Shown piece by piece: positions 12,495 to 50,130 of a stretch of 50,130 nt of DNA. Under the pieces are notes generated by a model. The model searched no databases. It saw nothing but the letters and a program-made list of their open reading frames with translations, and was not told where the DNA came from. The stretch covers positions 620,001-670,130 of the forward strand of contig BCKZ01000014.1 of assembly GCA_001600815.1 (NCBI GenBank), in the 5' to 3' direction. Positions within the stretch are counted from its first letter, which is position 1. Every line of letters begins with the position of its first letter. The position numbers were made by a program, and so were the translations under genes. Source of the DNA: Alloascoidea hylecoeti (Eukaryota).

Positions 12495-15097
12495 ATGTCC
12501 TCTATTAAACAAAAAAAAAGCAACAGAAAACTAGATTTCAATGTCAGGAGGATCATAAGTCAGAACACAGATCCAGGTAATGTCGTTCAAAAATACATAT
12601 CCTTATCCTTCTCTATGATTCTAACTTATATAATAATTACAGCCCTTAAAAATGGTATTTTGGATATTCACAGCTTTATAAAAGCTAAAGAATTTGAAAT
12701 TAAGCAAATGGCAGAAGCTCAATTACGTTCACGGTAAGTACTTCAAAAGAAGATACCCATTTTTTGTTTCACCCCTTTTAACATTTCTTATTTAATAGTG
12801 CTTCAGCGAAAAAACGAGTGTTTCAAAAAATGCCTCGAACTTTACGCCGTAGAACAGCATCTCATAATGTAAAGCGTATTCCTCGTCGTCATAGAGCCCG
12901 TGCTTTACGCGAAATGTCAAATGAATCTTCATCAATTAAAAAGGTCAAAAGTTTGCGTAGAAGACAATCATATCGATTACGCACAAAAACAATCTCAAAA
13001 TTATTGAAATTAGCTTCACAGGAGAAATCAAAAATAAATAAAGATGTTCTAATTGTTAATTCAATAGGAAATTTTGATATAACTGGTATCAATAAATTAT
13101 CCCCACAACCTATAGGTAAACTGAAATTTCGAAAACGGCAAGTTAAAAAAGTTTGGCTACCCACCCATATTTGGTCTGCGAAAAGATGTCACTTGGTTAC
13201 AAATTGGGGATATTCAATTCCTCTAAAACCAACACAGAAATGTTACAGATCAACACATAGAGCAAGTATTCAAGATGGTGCTCTCCTTTGGGATTCAAGC
13301 TTTATGGGATCTCTCGTATTAGATGGAAATAAAGAAGAAATAACACATCTCACAAGTGTTATTTGCAATGGGAAGGGAGGTTATAAAAGTGGAAGATGCT
13401 GGGAGGGGGAAATTTTTGGTGAAAATGGATTGTTAGGTATTGGATTAATTTATTGGGATTTTTATAATCAATTTCAAAATGACAATGGCGATGACACAAA
13501 TACTAGAGTTCTTATTAGAATACATCCCTCTATTTATACGACACTATTTGAATATTTACAAACTTTAATTCGAAAAATATCAAATACTGGATTTAAAACA
13601 ACCCAAATTTATGATTGTCGTTATTCAATCGGATCGATTGATATAACAGGTCCATCATCTGTATCTGCATTGACTACAATTCTTAAATCCGATCCTTCTT
13701 CTTCTTTATGGCAAAAGTTAAATGGATTAGCAGATTCTAAATCGTTACCCAAGAACATCACATTTTCATTCAATGTTCAGGATCCAAGAATATCATTTCC
13801 TCCAAAACAATCACAACCAAAACAACAGGATTCAGCTGATTTAGTTGACCTAATCCTCGCCATATCAGATACGAAGTGCAATAATGGACTCTTTAATTCC
13901 TCAGGTTTATTGACTGTTGAAGGAAGAACACAATCTTATATCAATCAAGCATCACTGAAACAAATAAATAAACAAAAATCAGAAAAAATACAAGGCACAG
14001 ATGAAAAACTTTTTACTGCTAATAACCCATCAATTCCAATTATATTATGCAAAAAGAATGATAATTCTTGGAGTTTATTAACTCCATGGCATTGGATACT
14101 TCCAATTTGGTATTCATTAATTTATTTGTCATCAATTAAAATAGGTGGTTTACAGCAATCACACCAATTATGTTGTGAATCAAATAAATTATATTACCCG
14201 GATGATTACCCTTTTTTGAGAGAAGGTTGGAAAAAAGAAAACGAAAATAAATTAAATTTAAAAACTGAATGGGAAAGGAAGCCACCAGGGAAAAGAATTG
14301 AATTTGATAGTTTAAAATTATTCAATAAAACTAATAATAATAACGATCAGTTGAAGGGTGAAGTCGGTGACCCCTTTTCTAACGATTGGAGATATTTACA
14401 ATTATTGGAACATTATTTGAAAATATGGAAGAAAAAGCAACGACAACAAGTAGTTTGTGGTGGTGGAAATTTTACATCGTTTGATACAAAAACCTTTAAA
14501 AGAAATATAAAGGTAAAACGAGACGTTTATAAATGTATAATAGATCAAAAAATTGCTGATTCTAAGTGGGAATCAAGTCATTCATCTTCCATAGATATTC
14601 CAATTGAGCTAGCTAAAGTTGAGATTAAAACTACTACTGAGATGGAAACTCATATGGATATTGACGAAGAGAATGAAGAGGATGATAATTTTTTAAAGGC
14701 GAAAATTATACCTATTAGATTAAACATCTTGAATCGTGGCCATGTTACCAGTCGTGCTAGAATTTATAGTATTCCATCAGAAGATCTTCGATACTGGCTT
14801 TCAACTCGTTATTCCAAATCAAGAACCAAAATCCAAAAATCCTTCAAAAAGCCAATTGATATTTGCGATCAAGTTATACCTCCAATCCCAACGGCAGAAC
14901 ATCTTATTGGGTATGTAACTTCCGGATCTTATAACTTACAAGAAGGATCTAGCACTGGAGTTGGATGCATAACTGCAGATAGCGATAGATATACCACTTC
15001 AGGAGAAGATATAAGTATCAATGAGTTATGTATTGTCAGAAATGTTGGTACTGATGTAGCCAGATTAGCAAAATGGAAAAAGATCACATTAGTCTAA
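12495..15097 (+). CDS. POP1: RNase P/RNase MRP subunit Pop1; introns 12577..12642 and 12734..12798
   Basis: Spliced N-terminus FIKAKEFEI..RVFQKMPRTLRRRTASHNVKRIP; WLPTHIWSAKRCH..WGYSIP..PTQK; YPDDYPF; WERKPPGKR; LIGYVTSGSYNL. Confidence 0.95.
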
Positions 15098-25580: not shown

Positions 25581-27058
25581 TTAAACCTGACCTATTAATA
25601 GCTTAACAACTCGTTTTCCCCAAAATTGTAATGTAGCTGCTCCTTCTGGCATCAGGTCAGGTCCTCTCATACAAATAATATCAACATGAGCGTCTTTACC
25701 TTTTAAGTCAATCGCGTACTTCTCCCATGTTAACGTGTTTAAGTTATCAATCATGGTTCGTACGTTTGTCGGTAAATTTTTGATTTCAACTTTTTCGAAT
25801 ATTTCATAACATGTATTATTTGAAATCTTATAATCAATAGTATTGATAACATTATCGATATCAGATTTGGATTTAGATTTAGATTTTCTATTGATATTAT
25901 GATCATGATTTGAGTAACGTCCAACCAGGTTACTATTACTTATTGCTTTTGTTAATAATCTATTTGGTAAATAATTTTGGTGGCTTGCGGACTTCACCTC
26001 TTGGAGCTCGGCTGTCGACTTACCCGAGGAGAGATTTTTATATCTCATAATCCTCAAAGTACTAGCTACCTGTAAGAAAATATTACCAAAGAGAAGCAAT
26101 GGAAGCAGCAAATAGAAAGCCATTGTCTTGCGAAATTTAGTGTAATCATGAGGACTATTATTCGAATCTAAAAGTTTGCTGGACGCAAGGTCAACTATAG
26201 GTGCTACCAAAGTTGAAGTTGAAGTTTCGGCTGAAGATATTGATGCAACCGACGATGATGAGCATGAAGCCGAATTGGAATTTGTAAATTCCTTATCACT
26301 ATTAACCTCTAATACTGAAAATGAAACAGCATGATGTGCAAAATCCGAAGGCGTAATATACGATGTGTAAAAGGGAACAGCATGGTCATCCTGAGTATTT
26401 GCTAAAAGCAAACGATTTTGAAATCTTGAAAGTCCTTTAAAATAAACAGAACTAGGCGAAGCCATTTCGTATATCAATTCACTCTTGTCATCAAAACAAT
26501 CAGCACTGGTTTTTCCGAAAGTTTTAGAGCCCAGAAAGCACATAAATTTTCCACTTAAATGAGGGCCATAATATCCTGTTGACACATGCGGTGTAGCAAA
26601 ACTACAATATATCATTGGGCGATACTTCTCAAATAAACCTTCGCGTTCACAAATTCCGATGCAATATCGAGTTATTAATCCACCTAGTGAATGTCCAATG
26701 AAACTTATATCATCAATTTCGATACCAGATTTAACCTTCAAATCGTTTACTTTTTCAGTAACTTCTTTATAAAGTCGTTCTCCTAGTATCTGCAATCCAT
26801 CATAAGTTCTTGCTCTTCTATTACTCTTGGACATTAAATAGTATAGTTCATGAGACTCTGTTCCATACTCTCGAATTGCACCTTTTAGATATCGTTTTAC
26901 TTGTGAAAGATCAGTGTAATCACCAACTAGGCTATGGAAGTAGGTTAGTCATATATTAATAAACGAACATGTAGTATTAATATTGATTATAACAGTTGGA
27001 ATTTCACTTACCCATGAGCAAAAACAAATAAATGTCTTTTCGTTAATGATGATGTCAT
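25581..27058 (-). CDS. DUF676 putative serine esterase/lipase (Rog1/Lpl1-like), copy 1; intron 26932..27011
   Basis: HLFVFAHG/LVGD after splicing (GTAAGT, GACTAAC, TAG); TYDGLQILGERL; ISFIGHSLGG; FATPH; NTQDDHAVPFYTS; DAHVDII. Confidence 0.9.
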
Positions 27059-27678: not shown

Positions 27679-28909
27679 CTAGGCACTTCCTGTTAAAATT
27701 TCAACAACACGTTCACTAACAAATTTTACAACTTCTGTTCCTTCTGGGTTTGCTTCGGGTCCATAGTAACCTACAATATCAATATGTGCATCCAATCTAT
27801 CAATGTAAACTGCGTATTTTTCCCATTCCAAGGAGTTTAGATTCTTGATTAATTGTCTTTCTTCCTTTGTTAAACTCTTCAATTCGGCTTGCCTAATAAT
27901 TTCAGGCTCCTCTTTAGGAGGGGGTGAAATAGGTGGTGGAGCAACAGGTTCAGAAGTTTTTCTTGGAATTGGAGGAGGTAAAGTTTTATAGTTTCTAACT
28001 CTGAAATAACTGAGAAGACCATGATACAACCAGAGTGGCATAAGAGCGTAAAATTGTACACTATGAAGAATTCTTCCAATCAAAAAATTTCTCCTCTGTT
28101 GTTTTTGAGCGGGTGGAAGTAATTTAGAAGTGTTAAGATCTACTAGACAAGATGGAATAGCGTCTAAAGATGATTTTTTAACATCGCTATGCTTATAATG
28201 CCCAAAATCAACCTCTCTATAAGAAAAGTCTGCAGTTGATATATAAGAAGAATAAAAGTTCAACTCAAGATCATGTTGTGTAGATCCAAATGCTAGTCTC
28301 TTTTTAAATTTAGCCAAACCGTTGAGATAATCAGATCCGGGTTCCGAAATATCTTGCAAGAATTTACTTGTTGGGGTTAATTGTGAACCTGATTTTCCGT
28401 ATAACAGTTTTGTGTTGAAAATGTATTGCAAAAATTTATCCAAACCTCCATAATGGCTTTTAACACCTATATGCGATGTTCCAAAACAACAATAAAAGCC
28501 AGGGTTATATCTTTCCCAAATACCATACTTTTCACATACACCAATGCACACTCTAGATGATAAGCCACCAAATGAATGTGCCAAAAAGCTAATATCATTG
28601 ATCTCAATGTTTTCTTCTTGTAGTTTGTTTAATTCTTGCAGTATTTCAACGTAAAGTCTTTCTCCTAAGATTTGAAGGCCATCAAATGATGTAGTAAATC
28701 TATTGGCTTTGGCTTCCAAGAAATACACTTCATCTTCCCTGCTATCTTTTAAATTGGCTGTTATTTGCTCTTTGAATTTGCACAGATTATCATAATCTCC
28801 TAAAAGACTGTATATTTTACAATTAGTGATTTTTAATTAAACCTCAGTACCAATGTAACAAAACATACCCATGAACTAACACAAGTAGATGCTTTTTTGA
28901 TTCAACCAT
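27679..28909 (-). CDS. DUF676 putative serine esterase/lipase, copy 2; intron 28808..28868
   Basis: HLLVLVHG/LLGD after splicing (GTATGT, CACTAAT, CAG); SFDGLQILGERL; ISFLAHSFGG; DAHIDIV. Confidence 0.9.
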
Positions 28910-46464: not shown

Positions 46465-47087
46465 TGTTGAAAGAATGTACAAAACAATGTTCATAATTCA
46501 CGAGTAATATATAATAAGAAATACCAAATTTTATATAGTTAGATAGCTGAATTTCAATATAAAAGAAAAGTCAAATGCTGATTTGAATTTGACTCTTCAC
46601 CCTTTCCATCTTTACTCTACTTACACAGTACTATTAATTCTATACAGAACTACTACTACTTCTATCTATTGACGAATCACACCGCAAAATATAAAATTTC
46701 CAAAAAAATTCTGTTGCTAGTCGTTATTCACTTTAAATAAATTTTCCATAGCAAAATATTTTATTAAACTTCGTTACGATGGCATCCACTTCAGATAACC
46801 CAAGTAACATCTCAGCAAACCCAAACTGATCATTATCATTAAAAAATTTAGTTAACAACTCTGGTGACATTAATTATGATTGTTTTAAAACTCAAATTGA
46901 CGCCCTTAAAGCCGAAAAGTTTAAACCATTTAATCAAGGTCCCTATCTCCAATGCATGGCTCCAAAATATCTTTAAGGATATGTTAGGAGATGATACTAT
47001 TACTGAATCATTTCTTAATAAATTTATCTTAATACATCTTTACACGGATGTTTTATGGGATTCACTGGAACCAGTAAAATTGCCTCT
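46465..47087 (+). mobile_element. Ty1/copia element A: 5' LTR (about 46465-46693) and degenerate gag from 46779, interrupted by element B
   Basis: TGTTGAA start, TATAAAA plus hairpin, eroded PBS AATTTCCAA. Gag MASTSDNP..N*SLSLKNL..GDINYDCFKTQIDALKAEKF..NAWLQNIF is homologous to the ORF at 49859. Confidence 0.7.
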
Positions 47088-47254
47088 ATCTAAAAAACTT
47101 TTAACTTTTAATAGTTAAGAATATGAATAAGATAAAGGATAGAGAAAGAAATCCTGAGGTGGATTTCTTCTCTTTTTATATTACTTTTTAACTATCTAAC
47201 TTATATAAATTAAGATATTATTAATTGCATATGTTGCTAAATATGGTTTCAACA
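47088..47254 (-). repeat. 3' LTR of Ty1/copia element B
   Basis: Begins TGTTGAAACC on the minus strand, downstream of RNase H; about 80 nt nearly identical to LTR 49629..49782. Confidence 0.85.
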
Positions 47255-47529
47255 TTCTCAGTATTTTAAGGCATATGCAAATTATAAAGTAATCAATAAA
47301 AATAATAATAATAATTATAATAAAAACAATTTTGTTTAATTTTAATAAGAATATAAAATAAGCAATATAAGTTTGAATAAAAATAAGATTCTTTTAATAA
47401 GATAAATTAAAGAATAACAAAATATAAATATCATAAGTATAAGATAAAAATAAGTATTAATAAAATAAGTTTAATATAAGTATAAGATAAAGAGTAAAAA
47501 TAAGAAATAAGATAAATGATTTTTAGTTT

Positions 47530-49147
47530 TTAATTAATAAGAGGATTCATTAATTTTTGAAATTGTATTTTGTTCAGATTTTTGGTTAAAGGATCTGAAA
47601 TGTTTTGGTTCGTTTGAATATAAAATAATTCAATTTCTTTTCTTTCGACCAATTCCCTAGTAAAGAACCATTTAATTTCAATATGCTTCGATCGGTTACA
47701 GTAGTGATCAGCAACCGAAAGAGCTGCCATATTATCATTAACAACTTTAATCGGATTTAAAATAAATTTTAATTCCTTTAAGAAGTTTCTGATAAATAAG
47801 GCATTCTTAGTTCCNTCCACAATCCCCACAATTTCAGATTCCCACGTTGACAAAGTAATATTTGAAATCTTTTTGGATTTCCAAGAGACAATGTTATTGT
47901 TGATAACAGTTATGAATCCAAAAGTAGAAGACCTATCTTTTTGATCAGCCCAAGATGCATCAGTAATTACTTTTATTTCATTGTCATTTGGTAAATCAAT
48001 AATTTCAGGTTTTCTTTCTTTCATATAGAGGGAGTTTAACAATTTCAATATCCAACGTATTATTTTGCTTATAAGTAATACCCAAATCTTTACTAGCAAT
48101 CAAATAGTTCAAAACCCTTTTAGCAGCCTTCAAATTAGATTGTGTTGGTGATTGAGATTTCCTAGCCAATAAACTTGTAGCATAAGCAATATCCATTCTT
48201 ACTGTTGAAGTGGCATAATTAAGAATTCCAATAATCTTTTGATAATGAGTAATTTNATTCTTGTTAAGAAGTTCTGAGGGACTATTAATATCATAATTTT
48301 CTGGTAGAGGTGTATAATTACGATAATTAGGAGTGATTTTATTCTCAGTTTGTATCTTTGATAAGTAATCACTTAAGCTNAACTTAACTTCCCCCTTATT
48401 TATGTTATTAATTGTTATACCCAAAAAGATCTTTGGTTTTCTATTGATAGTTAATGTAAATTCTTTTTGAAGATGAATAAGAACCTCATCAATATCTTTT
48501 TTCATTCCAAAAAGTAATCCATCGTCAACATAGATTATCAATTTAACCTTAGATGTGTAAAATACACAAGGTTCAACAACAGAATTTTTCATACCAATAG
48601 ATTTTAAAACTTCAGAGATTTTATGATAGAAGTTCATGGGTGATTGTTTNAATCCATATAAAGAANGATGAAGTCTCCAAATACAATTAGGATTTGATTT
48701 AATGCCAGGTGGAGGATGCATGTATATACATTCACTGAGGTTTGAAGAAAGGAAAGCTGTTTTTACATCAAATTGAACCATAGTTTCATTTGGTTTTTGT
48801 GTGTGTAAAGACAACAGTGTTCTTAAACTGTCATGGGATGAAACCGGAGAGTATGTAGAGGAGAAATTTATGCCTTTTTCTTGTGAGAAACCTTTTGCAA
48901 CTAGTCTTGCTTTGTACAAAGGTTTTGAATCAAGATTCTTCAGTGCAAAAACCCATCTTGAACTAACAATAGAAGTTTTTGGAACATATTCATATGTTTC
49001 TTCAAATACTTTGTTATCTCTTAGACTTTGTAATTCCTTATCCATTGCTTCAATCCATTCTTTTTTGTGGTTAGATTGGAGTACTTCATTATATGTCTTA
49101 GGGATAATTTCTGTATTTGATGGCATTAACAAAAATGATTCATCCTC
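47530..49147 (-). mobile_element. Ty1/copia element B pol fragment (reverse transcriptase and RNase H), one frameshift near 48010, cut at 49147 by element C
   Basis: PKTYNE..WIEAMDKELQSL; YKARLVAKGFSQ; QFDVKTAFL; SLYG.KQS; YVDD; ITDASWAD; VSWKSKK; SKHIEIK; NISDPLTK. Confidence 0.95.
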
Positions 49148-49628
49148 TGTTGAAAATACTTCTTACATACTTCAATTTATTATTTAATATTTATAACTAT
49201 ATTTACATATCTTATATACATAAATATTAATATAAAAGGAGACTAAATCCACCTTGGATTTAGTTCTCCATCCTAATTTTATTATAACCATCAGTACTAT
49301 TACTAAGTGNAAAAGTAACAAAATTAATAGATTTCCAATCTTTACGTCTTGTCAACTTTCACCTACTACTAGTAAAACTTTCACAACACTTATTTTATCA
49401 CAAAACTTTTAAAACTTATTTACAAACTTTTATTAAACCGAAGCAATGACACANCATCGGTCACCTGATACTGGTCAAGGTCCTTCAATTGATTTAACAT
49501 TTGAAAATCAATTCTTCAGTCTCGACAGTCTCATCTCTACTGGTAACGATTATATGGATTTGCCTTTTCAGATCTACAAATCCTATAAGGAATCTTCAAT
49601 TGCTTCAACTAAATTTAAACACGGATAC
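49148..49628 (+). mobile_element. Ty1/copia element C: 5' LTR (49148-49329), PBS (49330-49343) and gag start (49446), interrupted by element D
   Basis: TGTTGAAA start exactly where element B pol breaks, TATAAAA plus hairpin, GATTTCCAATCTTT, then an ATG-initiated ORF cut by the next TGTTGAAA. Confidence 0.72.
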
Positions 49629-50130
49629 TGTTGAAACTATATTTAGAATTATATAATTATCTTATTTATATAGAATACATAGTAAAAAGAAATATAAAGA
49701 GAGAAGAAATCCTCCTCAGGATTTCTTTCTCTATCCTTTATCTTATTCATATTCTTAACTATTAAAAGTTAAAAGTTTTANAGATTTCCAATCTTTAGAC
49801 TCTTACTATTAATTGCTACACAAAAACTTACTTTTTACTTTAACTTAACAATTCAACCATGTCTTCTGACGTATCCCCTACATCAGATAGACAAATAAGA
49901 TCACTCACCTTCAACGATCTTACCGTTACTGGTGGTGATATGAACTTCGATTGCTTCAAAACTCAATTTGAATCAATCAAAAACGAAAAATTTGAAACAT
50001 TTGATCATGGCTATTACTTCCCTGTCGTTAATGCATGGATTATGAACATTTTTCAAAATATGTTCGTTGACTCATCATTTAATATTGAATTTATTGAAAC
50101 TATGTATCATGGAAACAAATTCCCGGTTAA
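49629..50130 (+). mobile_element. Ty1/copia element D: 5' LTR (49629-49782), PBS (49783-49796) and gag ORF from 49859 running off the window
   Basis: LTR homologous to 47088..47254. Open frame MSSDVSPTSDRQIRSLTFNDL..GDMNFDCFKTQFESIKNEKF..NAWIMNIF. Confidence 0.85.

Follow-up and report, generated by a model that had tools for sequence, protein, structure and literature searches.

Priming of reverse transcription from a cut tRNA has been described for several Ty1/copia retrotransposons, among them Ty5, copia, Tca2 and Bianca, and is the route that we propose below for a group of decayed yeast elements. In published accounts, as far as these were available, the half-tRNA primers of other copia elements derive from iMet, Arg, Lys, Tyr, Ile, Asp and Asn tRNAs, and serine is named only as a 3'-end primer, in bivalve Helenus. 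The best comparison within budding yeasts is provided by the Ty5-like elements (S. cerevisiae Ty5, C. albicans Tca5, W. anomalus Ty5.1/5.2/5.L and Sa. ludwigii SaCEN-Ty5). As described, these Ty1/copia elements have LTRs that start with TGTTG and carry, directly after the LTR, a primer-binding site (PBS) that pairs with the anticodon stem-loop of a tRNA rather than with its 3' end; an iMet PBS is called diagnostic for the Ty5 family in PMC12711049. Candida albicans Tca2/pCal and related LTR families are yeast copia elements with a PBS to the internal region of a non-initiator tRNA, the C. albicans families being assigned to internal tRNA-Arg(UCU) or iMet in PMC4139406. In filamentous ascomycetes, the FunCo1 PBS is reported to be complementary to an internal region of tRNA-Lys (PMC5445492), while the rust-fungus Copia and Helenus families are listed with the anticodon loop of Tyr, Ile(AAT), Asp, Asn or iMet tRNAs. 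Judging by these rust-fungus families and FunCo1, copia elements of fungi commonly switch from one half-tRNA primer to another. Drosophila copia is presented as the classic "half-tRNA" primed element. Finally, plant Bianca elements are described as using a half-tRNA-Ile primer whose A34 is edited to inosine, with a PBS complementary to the edited half-molecule (PMC6317226); its supplement table gives 1/2tRNA-Ile as the dominant PBS type in 92% of 260 elements.

Here we compare with these systems a set of elements at the end of a 50,130-nt stretch of Alloascoidea hylecoeti DNA. This whole stretch is called the window below.

A nest of four decayed Ty1/copia elements

The final 3.7 kb of the window consists of four related, decayed Ty1/copia LTR retrotransposons, which we call A, B, C and D and which were delineated by reading, repeat finding, alignment and BLAST of their parts. 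B is inserted in A, C in B, and D in C. The four are homologous across the LTR core and gag, both by alignment and by BLAST of the parts against the window. None of them has both ends within the window, and BLAST of the element parts against the whole window found no further LTR copies elsewhere in it. The features are as follows.

46488..46694, + strand: 5' LTR of element A, starting TGTTC and aligning with LTRs B, C and D over a common core
46695..46708, + strand: eroded putative primer-binding site of element A, AATTTCCAA (46695-46703) and then A-rich, matching 8 of the 14 PBS columns of C/D
46780..47090, + strand: N-terminal gag remnant of element A, in ORF pieces with stops and frame changes, interrupted by B
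47091..47254, - strand: 3' LTR of element B, of the LTR D family (136/153 identical to LTR D; inverted-repeat pair I1, 95%)
47255..47262, - strand: purine run adjoining the 3' LTR of element B, CTGAGAA on the minus strand, a candidate plus-strand primer site
47530..49147, - strand: pol remnant of element B, reverse transcriptase and then a presumed RNase H-like C-terminus, in two frames that overlap at 48005-48099
49148..49329, + strand: 5' LTR of element C, TGTTGA ... TTAATA, its start set by loose contig ends reading ...AGCGAGAA before TGTTGA
49330..49343, + strand: putative primer-binding site of element C, GATTTCCAATCTTT
49344..49351, + strand: possible tRNA-pairing extension of element C, a bulged A and then CGTCTTG against tRNA nt 20b-26
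49446..49628, + strand: N-terminus of gag of element C, an ORF interrupted by D
49629..49782, + strand: 5' LTR of element D, TGTTGA ... TTTTANA, its start set by a loose contig end reading ...AGCGAGAA before 49629
49783..49796, + strand: putative primer-binding site of element D, GATTTCCAATCTTT
49859..50130, + strand: N-terminus of gag of element D, open to the window end and aligning with residues 7-93 of the polyprotein P0001

The assignment to Ty1/copia comes from the pol of element B, where 48005-49162 matches Pfam RVT_2 (E 3.6e-44) and is thus a copia-type reverse transcriptase. No Pfam family was found on 47530-48099, the C-terminal part of this pol, which we take to be RNase H-like from its position and from familiar motifs only. 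The reverse transcriptase and this C-terminal part are all that the window keeps of B. The closest full-length relative, P0001, is a single polyprotein of 1500 aa that is 54% identical to B in the reverse transcriptase and 31% identical to the gag of D (E 2e-13). P0001 has RVT_2 at 1017-1233 (E 1.7e-46) and, upstream, Pol_BBD (325-398) and SH3_retrovirus (663-705), both below the Pfam cut-off; a search of the viral_contigs collection found no relatives of it. Within the nest, the internal region of D (query 151-282) matches 46862-46985 in A at 68% by BLAST, and the alignment shows an insertion of 32 columns in LTR A that the LTRs of B, C and D lack.

To compare the junctions with other copies, contigs from four host-containing runs were set against 49100-50130; three of the runs share an organism label, the fourth being a wood-decay metagenome, and they amount to at most three samples from three studies, two of which samples may be the source of the assembly itself. 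These contigs set the LTR starts at 49148 and 49629: other copies end loosely at 49148, 49153 and 49629, reading ...AGCGAGAA and then TGTTGA, and AGCGAGAA before TGTTGA is the purine tract expected ahead of a 3' LTR. Host contigs without C carry pol onward beyond 49148, and those without D read other (gag) sequence onward beyond 49629.

All four LTRs start with TGTT(G/C). They end in TAATA (C), TANA (D), TTTA (B) and ATAA (A), with no clean CA, and position 49781 is an N; yeast LTRs usually end CAACA, according to PMC4139406. Among the host contigs set against 49100-50130, the differences between copies are mostly transitions; in X1, for example, C>T accounts for 18 and T>C for 11 of 50 places. 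Together with the TAATA end of LTR C set against the usual CAACA, these transition-dominated differences give a hint of transition-biased decay.

A few further observations concern the nest and its surroundings. Single N letters lie at 47816, 48257, 48381, 48651, 48667, 49311, 49455 and 49781, the last being the penultimate base of LTR D. Between the pol stop of B and its 3' LTR, 47264-47529 is very A+T-rich and contains ATAAGATAAA-like units repeated directly, though imperfectly (families D1 and D2). Host contigs from three of the four runs rejoin 49822 to 49628 via 375 other letters, giving the order LTR end, PBS, 40 nt of leader, about 375 nt and LTR start; they may represent a short non-autonomous derivative or a further nested insertion. 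The remaining genes of the window are ordinary yeast genes, and include two adjacent paralogues at 25581-26834 (-) and 27679-28728 (-) that encode DUF676 putative serine esterases.

The 14-nt motif after the C and D LTRs

The first-pass annotation of this DNA had reported one and the same 14-mer directly after LTRs C and D. We recovered GATTTCCAATCTTT as exactly two copies in the window, at 49330-49343 and 49783-49796 on the + strand, each adjoining the end of a 5' LTR (49329 and 49782, respectively). No third copy with at most two mismatches occurs in the window. A shuffle control counted matches with at most two mismatches (mean 1.89) and is uninformative on two exact copies; these two, moreover, sit in homologous elements and are not independent of each other. 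The eroded counterpart that had been proposed for element A near 46695 is also present, AATTTCCAA standing in the aligned position with 8 of the 14 PBS columns matched. As had been stated as well, a TGG-type PBS of the usual kind is missing: the 30 nt after LTR C and those after LTR D are without TGG, as expected of half-tRNA-primed elements, which have no 3'-end tRNA PBS beside the LTR.

Had the 14-mer recurred in 3' LTRs, it would have been LTR sequence. The 3' LTR of B ends ...GTTTTTTA and is followed by GATAGAGG, which is gag of A, and this flank has only GAT in common with the 14-mer. In host contigs that contain an LTR only (records 14, 20 and 28), the match ceases at 49779. Since the 3' LTR of B has only GAT and the LTR-only contigs stop at 49779, we regard the 14-mer as internal sequence adjoining the LTR; because of the GAT in common with the B flank and the N at 49781, the LTR end itself is uncertain by up to 3 nt. 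Contig depth drops from the LTR into the internal regions, a poor measure that we did not count as evidence.

The same annotation had called LTRs C and D dissimilar. They are rather divergent but homologous, sharing a common core with A and B, with 98 of 152 aligned columns identical and 29 gap columns. Against this background the 14-mer is identical at 14 of 14 positions, while the 60 columns that follow it give 23/54, and it is the best-conserved 14-column window in the C/D alignment. A second, C-like host contig covering 49305-49386 shows 11 differences over 82 nt, none of those listed lying within the 14-mer, and among the differences listed for the four host-containing runs no other letter falls within either PBS copy.

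A second conserved feature lies inside the LTRs. All four carry a hairpin, GAAATCC, a loop of 3-6 nt and GGATTTC, just after a TATAAAAG-like box (49704-49727, 47146-47169, about 49230-49255 and the aligned part of LTR A). This hairpin is the best-conserved part of the LTR.

Proposed pairing with tRNA-Ser(AGA) and its alternatives

The anticodon arm of S. cerevisiae tRNA-Ser(AGA), which the first-pass annotation had given correctly, is in print: Table 2 of PMC7200024 lists the antisense anticodon-loop probe GCCCAAAAGATTTCTAATCTTTCG, and bioRxiv 10.1101/422972 gives the 5' part of the tRNA as GGCAACTTGGCCGAGTGGTTAAGGCGAAAGATTAGAAATCTTT. The claim that the 14-mer complements nt 27-40 of this tRNA save for a C opposite position 34 held up against the probe, with 13 of 14 positions matching and the sole mismatch being C in the element versus T in the probe, opposite tRNA position 34. 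The printed 5' part of the tRNA places the match at nt 27-40, a stretch that takes in the anticodon stem on its 5' side, the entire loop and the two bases of the 3' strand that follow it. The motif lies directly after a 5' LTR and complements an internal part of the tRNA whose end falls within the 3' anticodon-stem strand, the tRNA in question being that of S. cerevisiae, not that of the host. By our own estimate, chance would give about 4e-4 matches of 13/14 among about 2,700 tRNA positions, and the probability that the single mismatch is an I-compatible base at position 34 is about 1/42. An alternative register that reads the loop as that of tRNA-Pro(UGG) was rejected by eye: its stem would not pair.

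In element C, pairing had been proposed to extend past a 1-nt bulge, CGTCTT against AAGGCG, and by eye this gives 5 Watson-Crick pairs and 1 G-U pair. The longer CGTCTTG, set against tRNA nt 20b-26, gives 5 Watson-Crick and 2 G-U pairs, again by eye. The C-like variant contig retains CGTCTTG with T as the bulge. We give the extension little weight, however, because D is without CGTCTTG.

ARAGORN and Rfam found no tRNA or other RNA family in the window. A metagenome scan with a 15-base pattern carrying N at position 34 returned at least 120 loci; the matches listed were all unrelated and, by eye, without a tRNA-Ser gene or an LTR element. At one of these loci (L091:270-350), a tRNA-like gene with anticodon UCC by eye carries the PBS in the sense direction as its anticodon arm. 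Because an arm with anticodon GGA turns into one with anticodon UCC on reverse complementation, this match is uninformative on priming. The host is a budding yeast distant from S. cerevisiae and has no close named relative in the collection searched. For its SAPS protein, the best named homologues come from Cyberlindnera, Spathaspora, Yarrowia, Wickerhamomyces, Trichomonascus, Geotrichum, Lipomyces and Ogataea, and none exceeds 51% identity in alignments that are all partial. The tRNA-Ser arm of the host could thus differ from that of S. cerevisiae.

Taking the S. cerevisiae tRNA as a guide, the best explanation, and in our judgement a likely one, is that these elements were primed by half a tRNA-Ser through the PBS adjoining the 5' LTR. 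The host tRNA-Ser(AGA) would carry the same anticodon arm as in S. cerevisiae, with nt 27-40 reading AAAGATTAGAAATC. Cleavage of the tRNA after C40, within the 3' anticodon-stem strand, would release a 5' fragment; this would anneal to the element RNA, and its new 3' end at C40 would prime minus-strand strong-stop DNA. The C opposite position 34 would suit the mature tRNA, in which A34 is deaminated to inosine, pairing like G. This register, with the primer ending in the 3' anticodon-stem strand, is the one described for half-tRNA primers in PMC6317226. That all four elements are decayed counts against this reading.

One property of the proposed primer also speaks against it. The PHA6 assay detects i6A37 through weakened hybridisation. 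S. cerevisiae tRNA-Ser(AGA) carries i6A37, and anticodon-loop probes are listed for this assay in PMC7200024. The modification may hinder pairing across the anticodon loop, which is a point against half-tRNA-Ser as the primer. As for the cut, RNase P is named in a review as making the internal cut of the Ty5 primer tRNA. The window contains a POP1 gene, encoding a subunit of RNase P/MRP, at 12818-15097 (+); its presence there is most likely a coincidence.

Three other explanations of the motif were weighed. A primer might be exactly complementary without editing, for example an encoded tRNA-Ser(GGA) or another host RNA, and the C would then be silent on inosine. By sequence logic the 14-mer does perfectly complement an arm with anticodon GGA. 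To our knowledge, though, the UCN serine box is read in eukaryotes by A34/I34 tRNAs, and G34 genes are as a rule absent. With A34 tRNAs stated to be deaminated in all eukaryotes (PMC10275265), we consider an unedited exact primer very unlikely.

About equally improbable is that the 14-mer has been kept for another role of the leader (packaging, dimerisation or translation) or for self-priming or an unrecognised mode of priming, its likeness to tRNA-Ser being coincidental. The conserved LTR hairpin lends this some plausibility, its 5' arm being complementary to the first 6 nt of the PBS, and fungal GalEa copia elements have been reported to have a conserved hairpin site instead of a PBS (PMC5445492). 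Pairing between the PBS and the LTR is weak, however. Watson-Crick complements of the PBS stay below 6 nt in LTR C and do not exceed 6-mers in LTR D; the duplex energies are -5.2 (C) and -8.9 (D) kcal/mol, as against -16.8 for a perfect duplex, while shuffled PBS sequences paired with LTR D give a mean of -5.66 (sd 1.75, minimum -12.6). It is also unlikely that chance would produce a tRNA match of 13/14 whose register is the one known for half-tRNAs and whose mismatch falls on position 34. Self-priming of the Tf1 type, which employs a complement of about 11 nt to the element's own 5' transcript, was rejected, the LTR complement being at most 6 nt and the energies within the shuffled range.

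Least credible of all is that the identical 14-mers reflect shared descent or gene conversion only, with no constraint, for while A, B, C and D are indeed homologous throughout the LTR core and gag, the flanks have fallen to 64% (LTR) and 43% (leader) next to a 14-mer identical at every position, and the variations listed for the C-like contig spare the PBS.

Position 34 and comparison with described half-tRNA systems

If half a tRNA-Ser was indeed the primer, the C opposite position 34 deserves attention of its own. Inosine pairs like G, which makes C the best partner at this position. Deamination of A34 to I34 is given as common to all eukaryotes (PMC10275265). The C could have arisen by two routes, either because reverse transcriptase copied I34 as G or because selection favoured I:C pairing, and the reading as an imprint, put forward in the first-pass annotation, is unproven. 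The Ty1 PBS is said not to be re-copied from its primer, to go by the title of a 1994 paper of Lauermann and Boeke. If this non-inheritance of primer sequence holds for the present lineage too, selection for I:C pairing is the likelier route. It is doubtful, in turn, that the PBS here is re-copied from the primer in each round, unlike in Ty1, and that the C is a heritable record of reverse transcriptase reading inosine as G. Were this true, wobble editing of tRNA would be recorded naturally in the genome by these elements, which would also offer a handle on whether half-tRNA primers are copied up to a modified G26. In S. cerevisiae, G26 is m2,2G in 21 of the 22 cytosolic tRNAs with an encoded G26, according to PMC10275265. 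It is speculation that a stop at G26 during plus-strand copying of the primer would yield exactly 14 nt (nt 27-40).

As a half-tRNA primer, serine would join the list given above, and non-iMet half-tRNA priming would extend to a deep-branching budding yeast. Because an iMet half is treated as the hallmark of Ty5-like elements in budding yeasts, annotation based on the PBS would miss or misfile such a lineage. The PBS would also be a second independent case, after Bianca with tRNA-Ile, that spans an inosine-edited wobble base, here with C. The elements would therefore provide a system for asking whether it is pairing with the mature, modified tRNA or copying of the primer that shapes a PBS, and whether such sites owe their length and sequence to I34, i6A37 and m2,2G26.

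The novelty that the first-pass annotation had suspected stands in part. Our literature search, which covered the running text of part of the relevant papers, found no serine half-tRNA primer in print, though there may be an earlier report. The broader idea was already published, an edited-I34 half-tRNA primer being described for Bianca (PMC6317226), along with many non-iMet fungal cases. Among the described systems, the Ty5-like elements resemble the present ones in their TGTTG start, in the placement and proposed anticodon-arm target of the PBS, in forming nests and, to go by P0001, in having a single polyprotein. They differ in that their PBS pairs with initiator tRNA-Met, whereas the PBS here matches tRNA-Ser(AGA), which sets these elements apart from the Ty5 family as strictly defined by its iMet PBS. 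Tca2/pCal and its relatives share the use of an internal, non-initiator tRNA region in a yeast copia element, but their primer, Arg(UCU), has no A34/I34 in the paired stretch. FunCo1 and the rust-fungus families differ in their hosts, which belong to Pezizomycotina and Basidiomycota, respectively, and Drosophila copia is an animal element that uses initiator tRNA-Met. Bianca resembles our elements, as interpreted here, in a half-tRNA primer whose wobble A34 is edited, and differs in pairing with tRNA-Ile in plants where ours would pair with tRNA-Ser in a yeast. Altogether, the way of starting reverse transcription proposed for the A. hylecoeti elements is a known one, and the choice of tRNA-Ser as the primer within it is probably new.
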